A stretch of 64,000 bases of DNA from a virus (IMGVR_UViG_3300037400_003374:9664-73663), one strand, 5' to 3'; positions 1-62,182 are shown, counted from the stretch's first letter. The notes: generated by a model not told the origin, from the letters alone. Numbers and translations are program-made.

Positions 1-3000
1 TCTTGTACAGTTCCTTCTCCAGAGAGCCCTTCAGTAGCTTCTTCTAAAGCCTCAGGAACACTACTAGCATCACCTGTTATTGTCTATGTTATAGGCGTCT
101 GCTAACCAGCTTCTGCGTTTTCGTCTAGAGTTTCAGGTACGGTGTTTTCGCCAGCCTGAACTGTCTACTTCACCGTGTAGCCAATTTTTTCCTTCTACTA
201 ATGAATATCGGATAATAAATGCATCGTATCGGCATCAGGCTTGCTTGTGAAAAAGTTCTCTGGTTTATAATTTACTTTCCCAGTTTCAACATCAACTTCC
301 ATATCTACAACTGCAGAAGCTTTATATTTCATTGTATAAGTTAGCGTATTATTTTCATCTTCTGCATTTGTTGCAGTATCTGTCCATTCTTTTCCAGAAA
401 GCATAGAAGCAGTCTTAATAGCTGCCGCGATACCTTCTTTTGTAGTGGAAGTTACAGTGTAGTCTTCAACATGAGCTGTATATGTTACTTGGTCTTCTGT
501 TATATCTACTTCAACTGTAGCGTCTATAGCTCCATGATATGTGACCGCTCCAGTATCTAGGTTTATATCTTTTTTATCTCCAAGTAAGCCATCTAGCGTA
601 ATAGCAGCTTGTGCTTTTAAGGCCGTATCTTCATCTTCAAATTTTTTACCGTCAACTATAAATTTACCTTCAGAGTCGCGCTCTAGTACATAGCCATGTT
701 TAAGAGTAAGATGCCAATCGCCAACATCAATTTCACCCTCATATCCAGTACCGCTTAGCACTTCTTTCATCGAAGCTGCGATTTCTTCCTCGTTATAATC
801 TCCAGAAAGCATTGCTTTATATAAAGCTGCTAAGCTGGCATGATATAATTTAGCTTCTTTTTCAGTTAGCTTAGCTCCTTCTTTAGCATCTGTAAGCATT
901 TTTCGTAGTGATATGCCATTAATATTTACATTATCTAAAGCTTTATATAAATCTGAATCCTCACCGAGATCATTAGCCATAGATAGGATCTCTTCTGCTG
1001 CTGTTTGCATGCCGGCTTTCCATATTACATATCCTTCACTATCTACAATGAAATCCCCTTTATCATTAATTTCAAACATTTCGCCTAGATCAATACCATT
1101 GCCTTCTACATCAATATCTTTCAATTTTTCCATAGCTACAATGACTTCTAGCAACTGAATCATACTATCAAGGATTTCAATCTAAGTATCTGCGATTGCG
1201 TCAATGCCTTTATCAACTTTACTCTTCATAGAATTAGCTCCAGAAGCTAGGCTAATTCCAAATTTACTTAAATCAACTTTAATGCTTCCATCAGCAGTAA
1301 CTTTTAATGAGGCCGCACCTTTCTATATAGCCGCCGCGGCGGATTCCATACTACCATCTAATGAAATACCGGCCAACTCAATCGTCTATCCAGATACGCC
1401 TGCAATATGATTCATTTCATTAACAATATTGTACCAATCTTGATAAGCAATTGAACCTTTTTTAACACCAGTCTGTAATGCTTTCCAAGCCTTACCCCAA
1501 TTCTCAAAATAATTAAGAGGATTGTTCTAACCACTAGGAATAGCATTTTCCATAAACTTAAAAGATGAATCTTCCGTGGTTGCACGTTCTGCCTAAATTT
1601 CACGTAACAGATTTAATTCTTCTTGATACTATTTAATTTTAGTATCATCATAGGTTTCGCCTTTTTTGATTGCTTCGTATACTGCACTGATTTCATGCAA
1701 TATTTCTGCACGATCGCTCAAGCTATTAGCAAGAGCATCCTAATCTTTTCCGGCTGCATCTGCTAACTCAATAATTAATCCTAAATCTTTAGCATCTGCT
1801 TTTAGGATTGCATCTAAACTGCCATCTGTGCCGTCTATTAATTTTTGAATATATTTTGTGAGAGCACCATCATCTAATTTTTGACCATCTTTCGTGATAG
1901 GTGTAATATTCATTACCCAAGGTATATTAGTTTTATAATTACGAGAATCTTCTGTTGCTGTAATTAATGTAGAATAACTTCCATCTTCATTATTCAAAAT
2001 GGGACGGTTGTATAAATCTACATTTCCATTCATAGATTCAAAGAAGTTTTTATATTGACCATAACCAGCAGCGTCGGTCGCTTTTGTAGCTAACTCTTTC
2101 TATAATTCCGTGGTTCTTGCCGCTGATGCAGTTACTGATTTAAAATTCTCATTCGTTTCAATGAGTGATTCTTTTAAATCTTTAAATATTATCTAGCCCT
2201 AAATGCTATCAATATTTTTCATAGTATTATATAGCTACAACGCTGAATCATTAGCTAACTTTAAACCATCAGTTGTCTCAGTAAAATCTAATTTTCCAAG
2301 CCCATGCTATGTTGCCCATTCCTATAATTTAAAAGCATCTGTATTCTTTAAACTTCCAGAAATACCACCAGTGATTAAAGAAGTAATTTGAGATAGCGTA
2401 TCTGCAATCGCGTCAGCTAATTCAGCAAGCTATTCTGGTATAACCGCACCAGCTTTCGCAGCAACATTGGCTACTTCAGTAATTATCTATGTAATATCTG
2501 CACCGAATTTTGCCATTTTATTCGCATCAAAAGCTACAACGCCATCTTGAATTATTTGACCATATTTGCTTATTATAGCGTTAAAGGCCGGACCAAGTGT
2601 TTTCTATAAATAAGAAACATTAATAGCTTTACCAGGCTTAGCATCTGCCAACCCTTTAATCTAATTAGCAACATTTTCAATAATATTATTACTGCTATTA
2701 TAGAATTCAACCATAGAATCGGCATACTTATTAAATGCTTCCTAATATTCTGGTGTACCTTTAAGTATTCCAAGGTCTCCCGCAAAAGTGTCAAAGTCAA
2801 AAATACGAATGCCGCCGAGGCCTGTTAAGCCAACAGTACCTTCCTTAACAAGCTTAGGCAGTTCCTCTTCTAAATTACGGCCAAGTTTATTAAATAACTA
2901 CGCTAATGTATCAAACGACATGTTCGCAGCATTCTCTAATGCATTCATTATATTCGTATTTTTCTAATCACGGGCCGTTAACATTTTAGCATAAGCATTG

Positions 3001-6000
3001 TTTAGATCGGTAGTAGTCCTAGCGGCATCTTCTTTCATCCTATTATAAATAGCAGCATAAGCCTTAACCATATCAAATGCCGAATTTACCACGCCTGCTT
3101 GGTCAGCCATACCTAAAGAAACTAAAGCTTGTTTTAATTGCCCAGTAACAGTTTGCATTGGAGTAACATCACTAAGCGCATTAAAGGCATCATTCCAACT
3201 TTTAAATGCATGTGAATAAATTTCTGTTAACTAATCTTCGGACAAATCCGGTTTTATTTCTTTTGCCAGTTTAAAGGCTCTTCCGCCACCTTCTAAAAGT
3301 ACTGTTATAGCATTTTGTGCGGATTGCTATGCCTTAGCTACCGATTGCCCCATTAACTCATAATAAGCTTGAAGCTACCGTCCAAATTTATCAACATCTT
3401 TTTCTGTTTTTTCGCCTGATAAGAATCCATTAATGTCAAGATTTTTACTCGTCAAGTCGATAGTATTAGCTTTAATCCACTATTCTACTTCAGTTTCTTG
3501 AAGTACACCATAAGCTTGTAAATTTTCAGCCTATAATCGTACATACTCGTTAATAATATCTGGTGAAATAGTAAAAGCTTCTAATGCTTCATCATAATAT
3601 GAAATCTATTTTGTTGTAAGATTTTTACCACTAAGCTAATTATAAGAATCTACAAATGTTCCAATTTCTGCAAAATTATTAGTTCCAGTAGACAATAAAG
3701 ATACGCCTTTAGAAATATTCTATAGATAAGAATCGGCAATTTCACTAATTTCTTTCTAAAATAATTCATTAACATCATAGCCTATTGCGGCTAATCTCTA
3801 ATTAAGAGCGGCTAAATTAACTTTATTTCTACCCCACTCATCAGGAGTAATATAATCACGAATATTAATCCCTAGGCTCTCAAATGCTGTTGAGAAAGTA
3901 GCAATAGACTCTTCACTAAGATTTTCGTAATTTTCAACTACACCTTGAATGGCATTATACTTTTTATTATTAATAGAAGTTTTTAGATTATTTACTCTAG
4001 CCAATAGCTACTAATATTCTTCTGAATGCTTATCAATGTTTGGTAAAGCATTTACAAATAATAAAATACTATCAATATCTTTTTGGCTATTTACAACAAA
4101 TTCTTCCGTCCATTCGTTATATTCAATGCCTAAGCCTCGTAAGTCTTGAATAATATTATCTGGATTAGCCCCCCAAGCGGCAGCAAAGCTTTCTGCATCA
4201 GCTAAACTAAATCTTTCTGAAATTATCTTGGAAATACCGGTATATTGATTGCGTTTTGAAGCAGTAGATTTTTTTATCTAATTATAAACACTCTATAAAA
4301 CATCCTTTCCTTCGCCTTCATATGCCTTAATAGATTCTTCTAACAATAATAATAAAGCATCTCTTCTAGCTTCATTTTCAATTACCATTGTAGCGTCAGT
4401 AGCTTTAGCTCCTAGTGCTGTTTTCATAGAATCAGGCAGAGAATCAATTCTAACTTCCGTGCCGATACTTGCCTCAGAGAGAGCCTTTAACTATTGAGCA
4501 ATCTATTTTCCTTTATTTTTTTGCTCTCTATCACTAATTCCCTTATCAATATCATCAGAGACAATTTTTCTAAATTGCTCAGTTTCATCTAATGCAGTTA
4601 ATCCTAGCTTTTCAGCCAAGAATTTTAATGCTGCTTGTGCACTGACGCCGGCTTTTAATGCCCATACTTCTCCATTAAATTTAAAATAGTCATCTAAGCC
4701 TGTTACTTCGCCATTCGCATTTACGAATGCTTTGTTACCTGTAGCATCTACAAAACTATTTAGTTCTTCCGCAGTAAAACCATTCTCAAATTTATTTAAT
4801 AAATCACGCTATTTTCCAGCATCAGTTGTTTTATAGCTTTCTTCCGCTCGTTTTTGTATGTCTTCAGCAACTTCATCTAACGTTCCCGCTCCAGCTTTAA
4901 TTAAAGTAAGAATCGCCTTCCATACACCATCTGCTGCGCCAGCTATATCAGCAGTTGAGGCTCCTTCTTGAAGATTGAATGATTCAGTTAATAGAAGCTA
5001 TTCCTATTCTGTTAATGCTTCCCAAACTAAATCGCCTGAAGTAATTTTATCATAAAGACTAGTTAAACTTTCAAAACGAGCGCGTTCGCCTTTAGATTTA
5101 GAAACCTAGTATTCTTCTCCAAGGCCCCAATACTTTAGCTAAGCATTATATTCATCTATTTTTCCTTGAATTAATAAAGGATATACTGTATCAAAATATT
5201 GATCAATCTATTCCGCAGGAGATAATTTTTCACCCGCCTTTCTTTCACTTCTAGCAACTTTCTATAAATATGCCTTTAATTGTTCTTTCTATTGTGATGT
5301 TCCTTTCCCAGCAACAATAGAAGTATAATCAAACGACTACAAAGCCATTTTAATCATATCTTCTGACATGCTTTCAAGTGCATCTATTTGTTCTTGTAAT
5401 TCTGTAGTATGCGTTTTTAAATACTCGGTTATAAATTCATTCCAAGACTTCCAAGTTTCTTCATCCTAGGCATTAAAAGCATCAACCAGCTACGTATATT
5501 CAAGCCAATAACGATCAAGCTATGCTTTATCTTTGGAATCATTTGGATTTAAATTGAATGTTTTAGCAAATTGATTCTTTAATTCAGCCTATGCATTCTC
5601 TATCTCTTTCGGCGTACCTAATTCTTTATTTCCATTATAACTAATTGCCATATCCTCCAATTGGTTAGAGGAATCTAATAAAGCAGGCCCTAAAATGAGT
5701 GAATAATCTTCAATAGACTTGTTAATATTACTTATTTGATCTTTATTTTGCTATTCTAATGCCGCCATCTCAAGCTAAAAAGCCTAAGAAGTCTTAATAT
5801 ATCCTTTAGCTTCTTTATCATATGTATATAAATCTTTAAATTGTAATTTTTTATCTCTATTAGCATCAATTAATGCTCTAGCTTTCTTTAACGCTTCATG
5901 ATATTTAAAGACCTTCGTCATATCGTCAATAGAATTGCCGATAGAAGTAGCTGTTTCTTCTGCTTCAGTAGTAAGCTATTCTAGCTAAGTTGCAGCGCTA

Positions 6001-9000
6001 ATAGCCCAATGAGAAGCCGATTCAGTAAGAATATTAGAAACTCCTTCAAATTCTGTACCCATCTCACTAAGCTAAGTTGCTGCAGATTGTAAAGCTACTG
6101 GATCAGATAAGTCCAAATCCTTTAAAACAGAAAAAACTTTAAGCTATTTATCCCACGATAGTCTTCCAATTCCTTCCTAACCATATAACTATTCTAATAC
6201 ATGGCGATAAACGTCCGCTTGTGCATACTACTAATTATCTATTAGTGACTAATACTAAGCCATATCTGAACGGAAAGTAGGAATCAACGCGCCAATTAAT
6301 TCATTCTAGTCACCGGCACCATTATACAAGGCTTTAAATGTATCATTATCTAAACCTGCGGCCTTGAGCTGCTTATCTAGTCCTTCAATTTCTGCATCTC
6401 TTATTTCCTATAAGTGTTTTTCTAAACTTATACCATATGTTGTAAAAAATTTACCTGTCTTCTCTTCTCCTAAATAAGAAGCTATATCATCAACACTCCG
6501 GAACTAAGAATAATCTAAATTTAAAAGTTTATTTGCACGATCTTCATTCTTTAATAACCAGTCCTCAAATTCTTTCATAATCTCTTCATCTGGTAAACTA
6601 GTTCCCATTCCAGAATAAATAAAGGACATTAAAGAAAGATATTTCTATAATTTCTCAGCATTCTCTTTTGATTGCTCGTCCTATTCCGCTAAATCATGTA
6701 AGCGAACTTCTATTCCTTCAGAAATTTGCGCATGCTGCAAAGCAGTATTTGCAGCCGTAATTGCAGTCTCGGTTTGATCATATAAACTCTCGGCATAAAT
6801 TTTGACTTTCTTAGCTAAATCTACTAAATCTAAAAATGATTTGCCCAGAAGGTCTTTTTCAGAAGAAATTCCAACAGCACTTAAAATATTATCATTAGGC
6901 ATATTGGTATTATATGTACTAATTGCGTTCCATAACATACTTGCTATTTCATCTTTCCACTGCTCATCTATTAAATTAGATTTACCAGATTCAAGGTACC
7001 CTTTCTCATCAATCCATTTTAATATTTTATTTTCATTATCTTGATAATATTCTTCTACAGCTCCCTCTCTTAAAAGTGGACCTAGCTCATCTAATTCTTC
7101 TATTCCCTTGTGATCTTCTAGAAACTTCATATACTCTCGTACTAAAATTTCCTTATATGGCATAGTATTGTCATACTATTTCTAATAGTCATTTGTAGTA
7201 GTAAAAAGGCGAATCTAAGCTGCTGCAGCCTAAGCTACCATATCATTAATTGCTTCAGAAGTAATACTGTCTTTAAACAAACGACGAGCGTCTCTATATG
7301 AATCTAACTCTTTCGTCTCTGATTCCAATGCTGCAACTGTGCTTCGAGCTGTTTTTAAACGAACTTCCGCGAGTGCTTCCTCTAATGTAGTCGTTTCTAT
7401 AATAGCATTATTTGCCGCATCAATAGTACTCACATATTCAGGATAAGAGCTCTTTAGCTAATTCATATAATCGACATATTCTTGTTCAGCTTCTACAGAA
7501 TCATAACGTGCATCTTTTAGCTATTGTAATTTAGTTAGAGACTATTCTAATGATTTTTGCTCTGCCTGATCCTTCGCCAACTTCTCCTAAGACTACTTGA
7601 GAGCTTTTTCTCTTAATTCAATTTCTCTCGCTAGATTTCCATGATACTACTGAAAGGCTGTAATAAGTGACGGCAGCGCTGTAGCAATTCCAGAAATTAA
7701 TCCTGATAGTGCACCTACCCCGGTGCCTAAACCTGGTACAACGCTACCTAAAGCGGCTCCAGAAGCCATACTGCCCAATATCTAAAGTTCGGCACCGAAT
7801 TTAGTCTTTCTTGCCGCACTACGATCCTAATCAATTGACGTGCTTTTTCCATAATCATTCGCTCCACCTATAACTAAGCCTGCACCAGCCAATGACATGA
7901 GCTATCCTACCATTTGACCTACTCGCGACATAAGCATTTTAAAACCGCCGTTCTAAGTGAAATTATTCCAAAAGCCCGTTCCAGCTTCTTGTCCTTTATT
8001 CCTGATGGCTAAAGCCAGTCTGTCAATCATACTTAAAGTATACTGTTCCGCACTTGCTCCAGCCGTCTGCAATGAAGTCTAAATATTAATAATAATATTC
8101 TATAACGCTGCTTTTATAATAGAGATTAAACTAGCCGCAACTGCAATTGCCTAAGCAGGAATTTTTCCAAACAATTTAGGCATACTATTTGCAGCACTAA
8201 TAACATTGGTAATAGTATCAAGTATTCCACGATATAAAGTCTCTATTCCAGAACTAGTATAAAATTCTTGGATTGTCACTTTCATTTTTTCAATCTTAGC
8301 ATCAATTGAATCTAGTGTTTTTAATGTCTATATTTCACCTGTTCCTTCAGAGTTCAGCGCAGTCTAAAGTGCTTTTTTGTATTCATCAACATTACTAACC
8401 AACGCTAAGAAACGAGATTGCTATCTATTACCAGCCATCAAAGTAGCAATATAACGCTAAGATAATGAATCCAATGAATCCCATTTTTCCATTAATTCAA
8501 GTATTACATCATCAAAATTACGGAACTAGCCCGTAGTATCGTGAATGGTAATGCCAACAGTTTGCAAAGCTTTATCAACTCTATTAAGGCTCATTTCTTC
8601 GCCTTCAGAGTCAACTGTTTTACTAGGATCACTTGTCATTTCACCATAACGAGAAATAACAGATTTTAAAGCAGTACCAATATTGGTAGCGGATTCACGA
8701 GTAGTAGCAATCATAGTTGACATCATTGCACTAGTTGCTTCGAAACTCGCGCCTACAGCTTGAGCCGATGCAGCGGTCTTACTAATAGCAACAGCAATTT
8801 CTTCAGTACTGGAAGCTGTTGTTGCTGCTAATGCGCTAAATACGTCTGTAACATGAGCAGCATCTGTCATTTCAAGTTTAAAACCACGAATAGCAGTCGT
8901 CATATAGTCTGCAGCAGTAGCATAATCCAAACCAGCGATACGAGCCATTTTTAAAGTTTCAGTAGTCAATTCCATTACATCACTTTGCTATAGGCCCTAT

Positions 9001-10880
9001 TGATAATAAATCTATGATACTTCGTAAACACCCTTAATAGCAACACCATACTGACGAGCAATTTCACTATATTGACTAATCTATCTCCATAAATCTTCTT
9101 GAGAAAACTAAGTAACGACGGAAATGGAGGTCATAACAGTATCTAGTTCTTGAATATGCTTTTTCATATCATTAATTGCTTTCTTTGTCATATTCAATAC
9201 TTGCCAGAAGCCCATCCAACGATTAACCGCCATTGATACATTACTAAGAGCATTCTATTTTTGCTGCAATTTGTTTAACGACTAAATATAGCTTTCAATT
9301 CTATTTTTCGCTTCATCTACTTCAGGCTTTGGAATAGGTGTTTTACTAGCTGCGACATCATTATATGCTTTTGCTAATTTTTCTATAACTGCTAATAGCG
9401 CCTAAACTGCATCTTCTGTCGTTCTTAATGTATTAGGAGACGAGCCTTCAACTTTTAAAAAAGTAGAAATTGCATTCGTTAAATTCTGCCATGCTACTGT
9501 AGCATTGGGGAGGTCAGTGCTAATCATACTAGCTTTTGCAGTTTCCTATGCAGAAGCATAGCTTGTTAACGCAGTCTCTAAATTTTTATATATATCTGTC
9601 AATTTCTATCCAGCAGTAATATCATCAACGCTAAATCCAGCTGTTTTCAATTGAACAGTGTCAATATTCATAGACTTAAGTGCACTGCTAATTTTATTCT
9701 AAAGATCTTTAACTCCAGTTTTGGAAACAACTTGTTCGCCAAGCCCGGTAAAGACATTTGTTAATTCAGTAGAAATATTAGCTCTCAATCTAGAAAATTT
9801 TATTTTTTCACCACCAAGTTTACTTAGTGCATCAGTTAACTTGGAATTTAATCTTTCAACACGAGCATCTATATCAGTTTCACTAATCCCATCAAAAAGA
9901 GTTTTGGGATCAATTTCTGCTGCAGCTAACGCTTTTTTAATTGCATCAGTACCCATTAAACTTTTAAAATCCGCATCTGTGTATTTTGTCCCTGAAGGGC
10001 CTATACTTGTTAATGCTTTCTAAACTTCTGCCTCTTTACCTGTAATAAGGTTAATCTATGTTTGATATTCCTCTTCAATCTTCTCCGTCTTTGTTCTAAT
10101 ATATTCACTAATATCAGTTGTATCAGTTACTACAAAACTCTTCGTTTTATCCGAAATCCCTTCTAATGTTGTAGACAACACTGCCAATTTCGCATTTGCG
10201 TCGGCTAATTCTTTAGGATCAACTATATTTGTAGTAATTCCCTTTGTATTCGCACCAACAGCGGCCTAAACATTTGCTAGACCAGAACCACGAATTGTAG
10301 CAATAGAAGTATCTAGCTATGCAATATTCTACTTAATATCATTAACTTGCTATTTAGCTTCTCTTGCTGCTTCTATTAATCTATCTTTCAACTCACTAAA
10401 AGTAAGCTTAGAAACATCACCTTTTAATGAAGAAATCTAGTCTCTTAAATTCTGTATACCATTAATAGATGATTGATCTACAAAAGCAACAGCAGAACCA
10501 TTTTTCATTTGCTCCAAACTTGCTTGTAATCTATTAATCTGTTCAATTGCTTTATCAACAGTATCTTGGTCTGATACTGAGAATTTGATATCTTCAAATC
10601 CAACATTCCCCATCTTAGTCTTTACGGTAGCCAATGTATCCAACATTGTCTAATATTCACGTAAAAAACTCTAAGAGCTAGAAGACGTCTAAAAAGCGCC
10701 TTTTAATTTACTACTCAATTTATCAACCGAGTCTGTAGCCTTTGATAGCATTCGGTCCATGCCTTTGAAACTATCAGAATCCAATTTTACGCTATTCTAT
10801 AATAAGGTACGTAATTCTTGAATCTATTGTCTAGCGGCATCCAAACCTAGTCGTACTGGAAATTCAATACTCTAACTCAT
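1..10880 (-). CDS. Tail tape measure protein (>3,626 aa, runs off the window end; TAG read as Gln)
   Basis: Eight ORF-track fragments (10437-10646, 9699-9956, 8526-8975, 7230-7433, 6681-7163, 3798-4004, 2964-3158, 1740-2033) plus 198-1163 share one frame; the fragment ends and intervening stretches I checked contain only TAG stops. ATG at 10880 has an AGGAG RBS. Fragment 8526-8975 resembles the TP901-family TMP core (DYATAADYMTTAIRGFKLE...DVFSALAATTASSTEEIAVA...NIGTALKSVISR). The whole frame was spot-checked only. Confidence 0.9.
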
Positions 10881-39749: not shown

Positions 39750-40018
39750 AGTTGGTTAGTCGGCGCTAACCGCGCCGGCAAGGCGATCCGCCGGCAGGGT
39801 TAGTTATGACTAACTAACCCGAAAAAATTTTTTTATAAAATGCTTGACAACTTTTCAAAAATATACTATAATAAACATGTTCCAAGGGACGAGGTCAAGA
39901 AAATTCCAAACTGAAAAAAAAGTTTGAAAAAACTCTTGACAGACTTCCAAAACTATGCTATAATAAGCACGTAATCAAGGGAAGGAAAACCCTAACAAAC
40001 CAGAAAGGACACTAAATT

Positions 40019-40345
40019 ATGAAGAAGTCTACTTTTGAAGCTATCCGCACCGCTCTTACCAAACTGGGTTATGACAATGCCGAAGTCCTTGCCGAGCTGG
40101 ACAAGGAAATCAACAAAGGCGCTGATGTCAAGGCTAAGAATTCTGAGGTCTACGAGTCCTTCCACGACATTCTGATTGACAACCTCGCCACCTCTCCCGC
40201 AACTTGTGGCGAGATCTACGAGGCCATCAAGGACAACCTCCCTGAGGGTATCACCAAGGGCAAGGTTCAGTATGCTCTGACTCATCTGTGGCAGGATGAG
40301 ATTGTAAAGATTGAGGGCAAGCCTAATACCTACCGCAAGGCATAA
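40019..40345 (+). CDS. Coiled-coil + winged-HTH protein, family W copy 3
   Basis: Paralogy. Confidence 0.8.
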   Translation: MKKSTFEAIRTALTKLGYDNAEVLAELDKEINKGADVKAKNSEVYESFHDILIDNLATSPATCGEIYEAIKDNLPEGITKGKVQYALTHLWQDEIVKIEGKPNTYRKA

Positions 40346-40470
40346 GCCTTTCCTTCTTGGTGGCGAAAACTGACTCGCCTTAATTGATGCGTAAGCGCTC
40401 CGTATAGCCAAGAACCACGAGAGTTTCTGAAGGGCTTTCAGTGTGGCTAAACAACACAAGCCCTTTATAC

Positions 40471-40556
40471 GGGAATGAGGACGATCAGATAATTGTCAGG
40501 CCCCTCGTGGGTAAGCGCAAGGCGCCAAGTGGGTGCGACTCCCACCATTTCCACCA
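40471..40556 (+). ncRNA. tRNA-like RNA with Ala identity elements (G3.U70, A73, encoded CCA) and a degenerate anticodon arm
   Basis: 7-bp acceptor GGGAATG/CATTTCC; T-arm GTGGG-TGCGACT-CCCAC; 6-bp D-stem GACGAT/ATTGTC; variable stem GCGC/GCGC; followed by a terminator at 40557-40580. Confidence 0.7.
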
Positions 40557-40580
40557 ACCGCCTTCGGGCGGTTTTATTTT
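40557..40580 (+). terminator. Intrinsic terminator
   Basis: ACCGCC-TTCG-GGCGGT plus T-run. Confidence 0.85.
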
Positions 40581-40839
40581 CAAGGCGAGTTAGTCTCAAC
40601 TAACTCCGCCGGCGATGTTAGGCGTGACTAACTAAAAATTTTTTTCTCCAAACTATTGACAAAATTTCAAAACTATACTATAATACAATTGTTCCAAGGA
40701 ACGGGGACGGACTTAGGAAGGTGAGATGTTAAAGGTTGCCATGAAGTTTCTGTAGTCCCAGGAAATGGAGTGGCCAGGTTTCTGCGTGGCTTTCCCTGTT
40801 ACGGAAAAAGTCACGCCCATTATGAAAGGGGTAAAAATT

Positions 40840-41097: not shown

Positions 41098-41366
41098 GCT
41101 AACCGCCCGCCGGCATATTTCTGCCGGCGGGAGTTAGTTATAACTAAGTAATTAAAAAAAATTTTTTCCAAGTAGTTGACATTCAGTGAAAATTGAGTAT
41201 AATAGATACTGTCAGGAGGGAACAAGAGTCCCAATAAAAAAACTTTGAAAAAAAGTTTAAAAAAACTCTTGACAGACTTTCCAAAACCTGATATAATACA
41301 GATGTTCCCAAGGGAACGAACGAATGAGAAGGAAAACTCAGCTAAACCAGAAAGGAAGATACCTCT

Positions 41367-41699: not shown

Positions 41700-41935
41700 T
41701 TTCAACCTCTTGCGCCCTTCGGGGCGCCTTTTTATGCGCGGAGTTAGCCACAACTAACTCTGCCGGCCCGCGGTTAGGCAAGTCTAACTTCAAAAATTTT
41801 TAAAAAAAAATGCTTGACAATTTCCAAAATTATGCTATAATAGACTCAAGAAGTTGAGGAACAGAAAAAAATTCCTCTTGACAACTTCTTAAAAACATGA
41901 TACAATTAGTTGAACTTAAGGAAAGGATTGATTTT

Positions 41936-61070: not shown

Positions 61071-61403
61071 ATGACTGATAGGTCTTTAGGTGTAATATAC
61101 ACCATTAAGCAAAAAGGTACTAGTGATGTTACGCTTGCCGCATTCTTGCAAAAATTTTATAGTACCGCTTACATATACAATCGAGATGAGATAGATAAAA
61201 TTCTGCGCGAGACCTGTGTTGACTTTATCCAAAGCGCAGATGACCCAATACGTGAACTGCGGCGTTACTTTCTCAGCGTAAATATTTATTCACTTGTAGA
61301 AATAACTGAGCATACTAGAATGATAAACTTTTTGCAGCAAATTCAAATATCAAAAGATGGCAACTATATTAATGATTTTAGGGATATGAAAGGAGAATTA
61401 TAA
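61071..61403 (+). CDS. Hypothetical protein
   Basis: GAGGTGG RBS. Confidence 0.6.
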   Translation: MTDRSLGVIYTIKQKGTSDVTLAAFLQKFYSTAYIYNRDEIDKILRETCVDFIQSADDPIRELRRYFLSVNIYSLVEITEHTRMINFLQQIQISKDGNYINDFRDMKGEL

Positions 61404-62182
61404 TGGATAACACCAGTCTTGGCGACCGCATAAAAATGTATGAAAACGTAGAACGGAAGTACTTAACGAGGCGGCTTCCGACTATTATCAGAGTAGATGG
61501 CGAGCATTTTCATAGCTATACGCGTGGCTTTGACCGCCCTTTTGACCTTGGTTTCATTGCCGCAATGCAACAAACCGCAAAGCAGCTATGTGAGAACATC
61601 ATGGGCGCGAAAATAGCATATACGCAGTCGGATGAAATCACCATTCTCTTGCGCGACGATGATACCCTTGTTACGCAGGCTTGGTTCGATAAGAACTTGC
61701 AGAAAATTGTGAGTACCGCGTCCTCAATGGCTACCTATTTCTTCAACAAAAACATTGCGCGCCTTTACACCCAAGGCTTGCCATCTCCGGTACCTTATGA
61801 TTGGTTTCATGCTTCTGCGGGCGTTAAGAAGGCATATTCCGAAGGCCGCTTAGCCATCTTTGATGCCCGTGCATTCATCGTTCCTCCAGAAGAGGTTATG
61901 AACGTATTTGAATGGCGCCAGCAAGACTGCATCCGCAACTCCATACAAATGATTGCACGCGCCCACTTCTCCCACTCAGAATTAATTGGCGTCTCATGTG
62001 CCGACATGCAGACGAGACTTCTCGATGAGAAAAATGTTGATGTAGAAAACTACGATGTCTACTTGCGGCGTGGTTCTTGTGTCGTTAAAGATGCAACCGG
62101 CCATTGGACGATTGACACCCATATTCCTATCTTCCATGAAGACCCAACGTATGTGGTGGTGGAAAGACATGAATCAGTTTGA
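61403..62182 (+). CDS. thg1: tRNA(His) guanylyltransferase Thg1-like protein
   Basis: LGDRIKMYE...IIRVDG.HFH, YTQSDEI, FD.R.F...P, YF/FEWRQ.DC.RN motifs. Confidence 0.9.
   Translation: MDNTSLGDRIKMYENVERKYLTRRLPTIIRVDGEHFHSYTRGFDRPFDLGFIAAMQQTAKQLCENIMGAKIAYTQSDEITILLRDDDTLVTQAWFDKNLQKIVSTASSMATYFFNKNIARLYTQGLPSPVPYDWFHASAGVKKAYSEGRLAIFDARAFIVPPEEVMNVFEWRQQDCIRNSIQMIARAHFSHSELIGVSCADMQTRLLDEKNVDVENYDVYLRRGSCVVKDATGHWTIDTHIPIFHEDPTYVVVERHESV

Follow-up and report, generated by a model that had tools for sequence, protein, structure and literature searches.

The transcription unit downstream of gene W

The DNA analyzed here, referred to as the window, is a 64,000-nt stretch corresponding to bases 9664-73663 of a 73.6-kb IMG/VR phage contig that was judged ~41% complete and derives from a bovine gut sample, with partial matches also present in sheep and goat gut runs. 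In the left 33 kb of the window, on the minus strand, TAG has to be read as sense: read-through extends the longest open frame from 543 to 1699 codons, and many of the large frames in this part contain in-frame TAGs, 3-9 each. When TAG is taken as sense, one minus-strand frame at 6-10880 is open for 3625 codons with 118 in-frame TAGs and represents a giant late protein or else a series of genes that share the frame. The right part of the window holds early genes, which are small, lie on the plus strand, and are each preceded by a perfect TTGACA-17-TATAAT promoter; 10 kb of this region (about 36-46 kb) contain 20 perfect promoter sites. Pfam returned no family for most of the window proteins scanned. 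The features of the unit that ends at 40580 are as follows.

39936-39964, plus strand: early sigma-70-type promoter, TTGACA-17-TATAAT with a TG extension (12/12 consensus match)
40019-40345, plus strand: family-W open reading frame, 108 aa (ORF list; 710 homologues)
40337-40350, plus strand: small hairpin whose loop contains the W stop codon TAA, no U-run
40346-40412, plus strand: module A, a closing stem CTTGG/CCAAG around two hairpins (MFE fold)
40411-40470, plus strand: module B, CCACGAG...CAGTGTGG.TAAACAAC..., then a U-rich leader (45 instances)
40471-40556, plus strand: tRNA mimic, short type, 86 nt (fold; CM R1, 110 bits; homologue covariation)
40557-40580, plus strand: intrinsic terminator ACCGCC-TTCG-GGCGGT with U-run, abutting the CCA of the mimic

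The promoter at 39936-39964 is predicted to drive both the W gene and the tRNA mimic. The window W protein matches no Pfam or PHROG family; some W homologues have a weak match to DUF6958, and W itself has no informative family. From the W stop codon (40345) to 40556, the sequence contains no terminator-like site followed by a U-run; the only element listed there is the stop-codon hairpin at 40337-40350, the stem of which covaries with the last W codons in relatives (GGAAGGC/GCCTTCC versus GGAGGGC/GCCCTCC). The terminator itself starts at the base following the CCA, an abutment that recurs in L005, L008, L011, and L110. Both points accord with a preliminary description of this DNA, which had seen no terminator between the W gene and the mimic and one immediately 3′ of it. 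RNA-library contigs from four runs, which comprise assembled contigs of relatives only, cover W, modules A and B, and one long-type mimic, and the mimic of the window itself is absent from them. In one 493-nt contig from a relative, modules A and B are continuous with the start of a long-type mimic; this is weakly compatible with co-transcription, as DNA carry-over is possible and the contig is silent on processing, RNA ends, and level.

In terms of the 125 nt upstream of the mimic, the preliminary description had proposed base pairing through AAGGGCTT/AAGCCCTT and CGTATA/TATACG, with the mimic forming the end of one longer structured RNA. The first pairing holds: AAGGGCTT/AAGCCCTT (40430-40437 / 40458-40465) is the outer stem of module B, a conserved element at 45 loci, and covaries from GGGT/GCCC to GGAT/GTCC. 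The second (40401-40406 / 40466-40471) lies outside the MFE fold and is not conserved in relatives. Module B is ~55 nt long, contains the long invariant stretches CCACGAG, CAGTGTGG, and TAAACAAC, and is found elsewhere, for example, at L004:3393-3447; it has no match in Rfam and possibly contains a CCAC/GTGG pseudoknot. It sits a few nucleotides 5′ of tRNA or mimic cargo, and where this slot is empty a U-run or other sequence follows it. Module A was detected by nhmmer in 12 W-downstream regions, with or without a mimic, as an independent 3′-UTR module, and the mimic occurs without module A or B in L005 and L008. Since the modules assort independently, and the upstream parts are seen both alongside the mimic and where it is absent, the idea that 40346-40580 forms one long structured RNA was rejected; by its sequence, this segment is a string of independent modules on one transcript.

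Several further elements recur around these units. A 3′-UTR hairpin with a CCGAGCCGTAGGGCAATTCGG-like loop is found ~150-300 nt downstream of W in L006, L013, L014, L016, and L017; it occurs in loci that lack the mimic and together with the mimic in L016. Between terminator and next promoter, GTTAG-N6-CTAAC palindromes followed by GCCGGC are present at 40588-40625, 41133-41150, and 41743-41790, and the same junction lies 3′ of the mimic in L008, L011, and L110. Directly downstream of the -10 box, early transcripts open with a hairpin of the GTTCC-AAG-GAAC type (40690-40710 and 41298-41320), which is small and conserved and may act as a 5′ stabilizer.

Fold, homologues, and alanine identity of the tRNA mimic

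The MFE structure of 40471-40556 is of the cloverleaf type (-32.4 kcal/mol; z = -2.0 versus shuffles) and agrees with the cloverleaf first proposed for this segment, with a 7-bp acceptor stem, G3.U70, discriminator A, encoded CCA, 6-bp D stem, and 5-bp T stem. Its elements are listed below.

40471-40477 / 40546-40552, plus strand: acceptor stem GGGAATG/CATTTCC, 7 bp, with G3.U70
40480-40497, plus strand: D arm with the 6-bp stem GACGAT/ATTGTC
40500-40512, plus strand: remnant of the anticodon arm, hairpin GCCC-CTCGT-GGGT, 4 bp with a 5-nt loop
40515-40525, plus strand: second small hairpin GCGC-AAG-GCGC, 4 bp
40529-40545, plus strand: T arm with the 5-bp stem GTGGG/CCCAC and the loop TGCGACT
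40553, plus strand: A73
40554-40556, plus strand: encoded CCA

The acceptor/D/T-arm cloverleaf of a canonical tRNA is thus present in the MFE fold, and the acceptor, D, and T stems also covary. The top half of the molecule consists of the acceptor stem, the D arm, and a T arm with T54-A58 and C56; the T-loop has G55 in place of U55 and the D-loop lacks a GG pair, such that the elbow of the window copy may be atypical. The central region of the window sequence alone folds into one long irregular arm in the MFE structure, and comparison with the full-length short-type homologues L026, L033, L112, L005, and L067 favors two small hairpins instead. This comparison sustains the anticodon arm of ~4 bp with a 5-nt loop that had been described initially, whereas the long variable stem described along with it is reduced to a 4-bp hairpin. 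A canonical anticodon arm, in which a 5-bp stem carries a 7-nt loop containing U33, the anticodon, and purine 37, is absent from the window copy. A descriptor requiring a perfect acceptor stem, T arm, T-loop, and NCCA matched the contig once and had 0 matches in 60 random copies, which were Markov sequences with the dinucleotide make-up of the contig.

We examined 16 IMG/VR and 80 metagenome loci around W homologues and found ~20 distinct homologues of the mimic at the same position, downstream of W, in related ruminant-gut phage contigs. The short type (7/5, ~86 nt) comprises the window copy, L026, L033, L112, L005, L067, and two copies cut by contig ends; the medium type (8/4, ~83 nt) comprises L011, L033, and L064; and the long type (8/4, ~112 nt) comprises L004, L008, L009, L043, L016, L035, L052, L055, L085, and L110, with the 101-nt copy of L104 as an outlier. 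Each homologue forms the cloverleaf when folded singly, and the W proteins of the mimic-bearing phages are only 50-96% identical. Pattern scans that were independent of W, covering IMG/VR and 185,579 prokaryote genomes (one per species), located the mimic only beside W-like genes; the other matches were ordinary phage tRNA-Ile, phage tmRNA, and two chance matches. Only one match falls in a bacterial MAG (Acutalibacteraceae); its 47-kb contig shows the cassette grammar of these phages and gives a weak hint that Acutalibacteraceae are the host. An exact 28-mer of the T arm and acceptor is absent from IMG/VR outside the lineage of the window phage, and blastn against 50,697 phage records returned only short terminator-like matches.

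The homologues were aligned to two covariance models, one for the long and medium types (14 sequences) and one for the short type (6 sequences). In the long and medium alignment, 97% of cells are paired and 15 of 26 pairs have changed on both sides; 0/500 shuffles reach the observed score, and slid controls all collapse. In the short-type alignment, 98% of cells are paired, with four pairs changed on both sides. The compensatory changes that the preliminary description had called for among homologues are therefore abundant in both alignments, and across homologues they are found in the D, T, and central stems. In the acceptor stem, G1-C72, G2-C71, and G3.U70 are invariant in 20/20 sequences and pairs 4-8 all covary; A73 is present in all homologues and the encoded CCA in all but L033a, which has CTA. 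The window copy contains the AlaRS identity set of G3.U70, A73, G2-C71, and 3′ CCA, together with G1-C72, in keeping with its original designation as a tRNA mimic with alanine identity. A fixed wobble pair amid changing neighbors is the signature of selection for an AlaRS identity element, and because G3.U70 is fixed while the neighboring acceptor pairs turn over, such selection is indicated here. We consider the reality of the mimic RNA, its shape, and its alanine identity to be well supported and hold them with high confidence.

A 7-nt anticodon loop is found in 0/20 mimic sequences. The center of the short type consists of a 4-bp hairpin with a 5-6-nt loop and a second small hairpin; most long-type copies combine a two-part central arm, closed by a GNRA tetraloop, with one or two additional hairpins; and in the medium type a short hairpin forms the end of the central arm. 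Long-type copies have a D stem of 5 bp and a D-loop of 9 nt, whereas in the short type the D stem measures 4-6 bp and its loop 6-10 nt. As the D and T arms of the short type are shared with a CAU-loop tRNA-like RNA that occupies the same position in L086, L077, and L053, the mimic appears to derive from a tRNA scaffold whose acceptor has changed and whose anticodon arm has collapsed.

Low or pseudo scores had been anticipated for standard searches. ARAGORN called no tRNA or tmRNA in the window or the whole 73.6-kb contig, and no Rfam family matched the window copy at its gathering score, the best sub-threshold matches being Tymo_tRNA-like (20.6 bits; cut-off 40) and tmRNA_permuted (18.7 bits; cut-off 47). 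The beta_tmRNA model scored the window RNA at 10.2 bits against a cut-off of 84, the L110 copy matched a tmRNA model at a sub-threshold 14.5 bits, and the long type reached 16.4 bits on the tRNA-Sec model, for which the cut-off is 47. With relaxed thresholds, ARAGORN proposed mutually inconsistent anticodons, a different one for nearly every homologue. This disagreement, together with the lack of any fold with a central 5-bp stem and 7-nt loop, eliminates an ordinary tRNA formed by an alternative fold and confirms the earlier view that the RNA has no usable anticodon. The mimic family is missed by both ARAGORN and Rfam, and a covariance model of its own would improve phage annotation.

Other tRNA-related candidates were also rejected. 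For an intron-bearing tRNA, the intron mode of ARAGORN at a lowered threshold gave only obvious noise across the contig. A permuted, two-piece tmRNA was prompted by the 18.7-bit Rfam match, in which the 3′ strand pairs with GGAAATGG at 40762; this segment lies beyond the terminator and a new promoter, in the leader of the next gene, and covariation links the 3′ strand to its true 5′ partner at 40471. An attP-type fragment of a host tRNA or tmRNA gene is inconsistent with the presence of the whole cloverleaf, the covariation of both strands, and the differences among the 3′ halves of relatives.

The variable cargo slot downstream of W

The position occupied by the mimic was surveyed in 77 distinct W-downstream regions that were long enough to judge, with the following cargo.

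34/77 regions: none
17/77 regions: alanine mimic, directly followed by tRNA-Lys in two
12/77 regions: tRNA-Lys(CUU) without mimic, in one also with tRNA-Pro
7/77 regions: other tRNA-like RNAs (CAU-loop; 8/4 with hairpin anticodon arm; 61-nt mini; 96-nt)
3/77 regions: tRNA-Leu(UAG)
2/77 regions: tRNA-Pro(AGG) alone
1/77 region each: tRNA-Tyr, tRNA-Gly

When mixed regions are included, tRNA-Lys(CUU) is found in 14 regions and tRNA-Pro(AGG) in 3; the mimic stands beside tRNA-Lys in L035 and L052, and L033 carries short and medium mimics in tandem. Close relatives, as judged by W identity, differ in cargo, which indicates fast cargo turnover. A complete 189.6-kb relative has a separate array of 25 tRNAs that includes a CUA suppressor and a normal tRNA-Ala(UGC). 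The slot cargo is thus extra to the decoding set, and the mimic is not the CUA suppressor that recoding requires, as had been stated at the outset. Encoded CCA is absent from the sampled array tRNAs and the sampled Lys(CUU) cargo and present in the mimic. The exchange of the mimic with tRNA-Lys(CUU) or another tRNA at a single locus provides a comparative handle on host pressures, namely those that drive tRNA cargo in uncultured, alternatively coded phages.

Two further anticodon-less RNAs without alanine identity were observed in the slot. The first, at L062:1651-1724 and L080:1553-1626, is of the 8/4 type and has in place of the anticodon arm a 7-bp hairpin with an AAA triloop, which ARAGORN mislabels as tRNA-Phe(AAA); the second, at L012:3512-3572 and L072:1713-1773, is a 61-nt acceptor/T minihelix with one extra hairpin. 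Their occurrence indicates that the anticodon has been lost more than once in the slot. Among the ordinary tRNAs, C replaces U at position 33 in a Lys-CUU (L059:1700-1772) and a Pro-AGG (L050:646-720), and these loops recall those of phage tRNAs for which loop changes have been reported to confer escape from anticodon nucleases.

Proposed role of the mimic and competing explanations

The best explanation overall, and one that we hold with slightly more confidence than doubt, is that the mimic is a phage gene for a tRNA-shaped RNA that undergoes tRNA-like processing and serves as an inert alanine surrogate or competitor. Transcription would start early from the promoter at 39936, with the mimic forming the 3′ part of the W mRNA. 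By analogy with tRNA biology, RNase P would cut at G1, downstream of a hairpin and the U-rich leader (in relatives, G1 is preceded by a hairpin and then YUUUAU), and trimming would bring the 3′ end to the CCA, at the base of the terminator. Because recognition by AlaRS is confined to the acceptor stem, the host enzyme probably alanylates the mimic. Once charged, it would decode no codon and, given the context of the slot, could act as a translation-inert surrogate of the acceptor end of tRNA-Ala or tmRNA, the role that is most likely because sister phages use the position as a variable slot for single early-expressed tRNAs. In this capacity, the mimic would sequester, or compete for, a host factor that recognizes either the alanine acceptor stem or the CCA end, candidates being an acceptor-directed immune toxin, AlaRS, and the trans-translation machinery.

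The decoy or competitor role as such is put forward tentatively, as plausible and short of probable. Precedents exist for its separate components: tRNA-targeting defenses can be defeated by phage tRNAs (PMC11555353), for at least one immune toxin the acceptor stem decides which tRNAs are targeted, the CCA end then being modified and thereby blocked (PMC11559606), and 8/4 tRNAs with G3:U70 are charged with alanine in E. coli in vivo (PMC5389517). A decoy would need a target that reads the alanine acceptor stem, since a decoy for a shape-reading nuclease needs no G3.U70. Neither SmpB nor AlaRS was found to be phage-encoded in five related phage records. A bolder version, which we regard as somewhat unlikely, takes the slot of these TAG-recoded ruminant-gut phages as a counter-defense hot spot and the alanine mimic as its inert decoy; the acceptor-stem and CCA features would have been kept and the anticodon shed, allowing bulk production without corrupting decoding, and the target would be an acceptor-stem-selecting immune toxin or the tmRNA/SmpB rescue pathway. 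If true, the mimic would be the first virus-encoded alanine-accepting tRNA decoy in bacteria.

The mimic is best read as a previously undescribed phage RNA family, and full-text literature searches returned no description of such a phage RNA, although tRNA mimicry as such has precedents in tmRNA, in plant viruses, and in a small number of eukaryotic non-coding RNAs. Its design differs from those of known mimics and phage tRNAs in that alanine acceptor identity and the tRNA elbow are kept and the anticodon is discarded, such that it must act by recognition and not by decoding. Because AlaRS reads the acceptor stem alone, no identity other than that for alanine outlasts loss of the anticodon, and the family amounts to a natural experiment into the possible activities, in bacteria, of a charged tRNA that does not decode.

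Among known systems, the mimic works most like the tRNA-like domain of tmRNA (SsrA), with which it shares the G3.U70, A73, and CCA acceptor, a T arm with T-loop, and the absence of an anticodon. tmRNA is cleaved by RNase P and charged by AlaRS (PMC3985003), and by this analogy the same would be expected of the mimic. However, tmRNA is ~350 nt long (about 300-400) and the mimic 86 nt, and the mimic lacks the tag-encoding reading frame, resume codon, and pseudoknots of tmRNA, has a normal D stem and central arm that are absent from tmRNA, and is phage-encoded in a 3′ UTR. The alanine-identity tRNA-like domain without anticodon is thus the feature of tmRNA that is present, whereas the reading frame, pseudoknots, size, and detection by tmRNA models are not. 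The long and medium relatives also resemble allo-tRNAs and 8/4 tRNAs in their 8-bp acceptor and 4-bp T stem (12 bp), G3:U70, and extra arms. Such 8/4-type tRNAs have been described in rumen Clostridia and in phages, and alanine is attached to those that carry G3:U70 (Mukai et al., PMC5389517). Allo-tRNAs, however, have a working anticodon loop and a long D stem with tetraloop, and they decode (PMC5389517), none of which applies to the mimics; in addition, the window copy divides its acceptor and T stems 7/5 and not 8/4 or 9/3, as in the 12-bp branch of allo-tRNAs.

Phage anti-defense tRNAs, such as the tRNA-Tyr of T5 that acts against retron effectors (PMC11555353), are likewise single accessory tRNA-type genes of lytic phages, but they decode and replace cleaved host tRNAs, whereas the mimic could work only by competition or titration. 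Plant-virus 3′ tRNA-like structures and mascRNA/MALAT1 share with the mimic a tRNA-shaped element that lies at the 3′ end of a transcript and is read by tRNA enzymes. The tymovirus structures combine a pseudoknotted acceptor with an anticodon and are charged with valine, whereas the mimic acceptor is a plain 5′/3′ stem that stays below the threshold of the Tymovirus-type model RF00233 (20.6 bits versus a gathering score of 40); mascRNA is eukaryotic and not aminoacylated, unlike the charging predicted for the mimic. For the ordinary cargo of the slot, its main tRNA, tRNA-Lys(CUU), belongs to the classic target class of anticodon nucleases.

The main rival explanation, to which we assign a low probability, is that the tRNA shape is purely a signal for RNase P and 3′ trimming that sets the 3′ end of the W mRNA; the module-B hairpin would be left as a protective 3′ end in the style of mascRNA/MALAT1, and the mimic would be a by-product. 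Such a processing tag is consistent with the co-transcription of mimic and W without an intervening terminator, with the location of module B and its U-rich leader just 5′ of every kind of cargo, tRNA or mimic, and with the interchangeability of ordinary tRNAs and mimics at the slot. RNase P, though, has no need of G3.U70, A73, or an encoded CCA, and all of these features are fixed, or almost fixed, in the three size classes despite their divergence. In addition, the 34/77 W-downstream regions without cargo imply that W expression is independent of cargo, and tandem copies and mimic/tRNA-Lys pairs are left unexplained. The variable cargo slot favors an accessory, decoy-type role over a pure processing tag.

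Improbable, in our estimate, is a mimic of the tmRNA tRNA-like domain proper, in which the alanylated RNA would engage SmpB and EF-Tu and either enter stalled ribosomes or titrate SmpB, modulating ribosome rescue during the switch to the TAG-recoded late genes. The alanine identity, missing anticodon, and encoded CCA fit such a domain, as do the weak sub-threshold matches to tmRNA models (18.7 bits for the window and 14.5 bits for L110), and the T-loop TTCAATT and acceptor GGGGAATG of the long type resemble the tmRNA (GGGGATG, TTCAATT) of the Acutalibacteraceae MAG that bears a copy. This resemblance is, however, expected of any alanine acceptor stem, and the tRNA-Ala of the same MAG has the same 3′ strand. 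In the mimic, moreover, the position that SmpB would occupy on tmRNA is taken up by a regular D stem and a central arm, an mRNA-like part and pseudoknots are both missing, the ARAGORN tmRNA search was negative, and SmpB is absent from the five related phage records.

The pattern of retained AlaRS identity and lost decoding is also that expected of a non-proteinogenic tRNA, and such isoacceptors exist for glycine in staphylococci. The charged mimic could accordingly be imagined as an alanine donor outside the ribosome that feeds an aminoacyl-tRNA-dependent transferase, for example, a Fem/MurM-type cell-wall enzyme, alanyl-phosphatidylglycerol synthase, or similar. We judge this very unlikely, as no such transferase is found among the window proteins scanned, and an accessory slot that is variable and expressed early gives no indication of a role in cell-wall chemistry. 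Finally, a decaying tRNA pseudogene or functionless chance fold would account for the missing ARAGORN and Rfam calls and for the apparent derivation of the short type from a CAU-loop tRNA-like scaffold, but is strongly disfavored by the compensatory conservation across phages with W only 50-96% identical, the invariant wobble pair G3.U70, the 0 descriptor matches in 60 random genomes, and the division of the homologues into three size classes with many substitutions, which shows that they are not recent copies of one sequence.

A separate observation concerns a Thg1-like protein encoded at 61403-62179 on the plus strand of the window (Pfam E = 6e-29; PHROG 4717 E = 1.6e-79), which is also present in two relatives, including the complete 189.6-kb genome. 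The Thg1 family comprises tRNA-His guanylyltransferases/3′-5′ polymerases that can rebuild tRNA 5′ ends, and the Thg1-like protein is a second sign of phage investment in tRNA acceptor-end biology.
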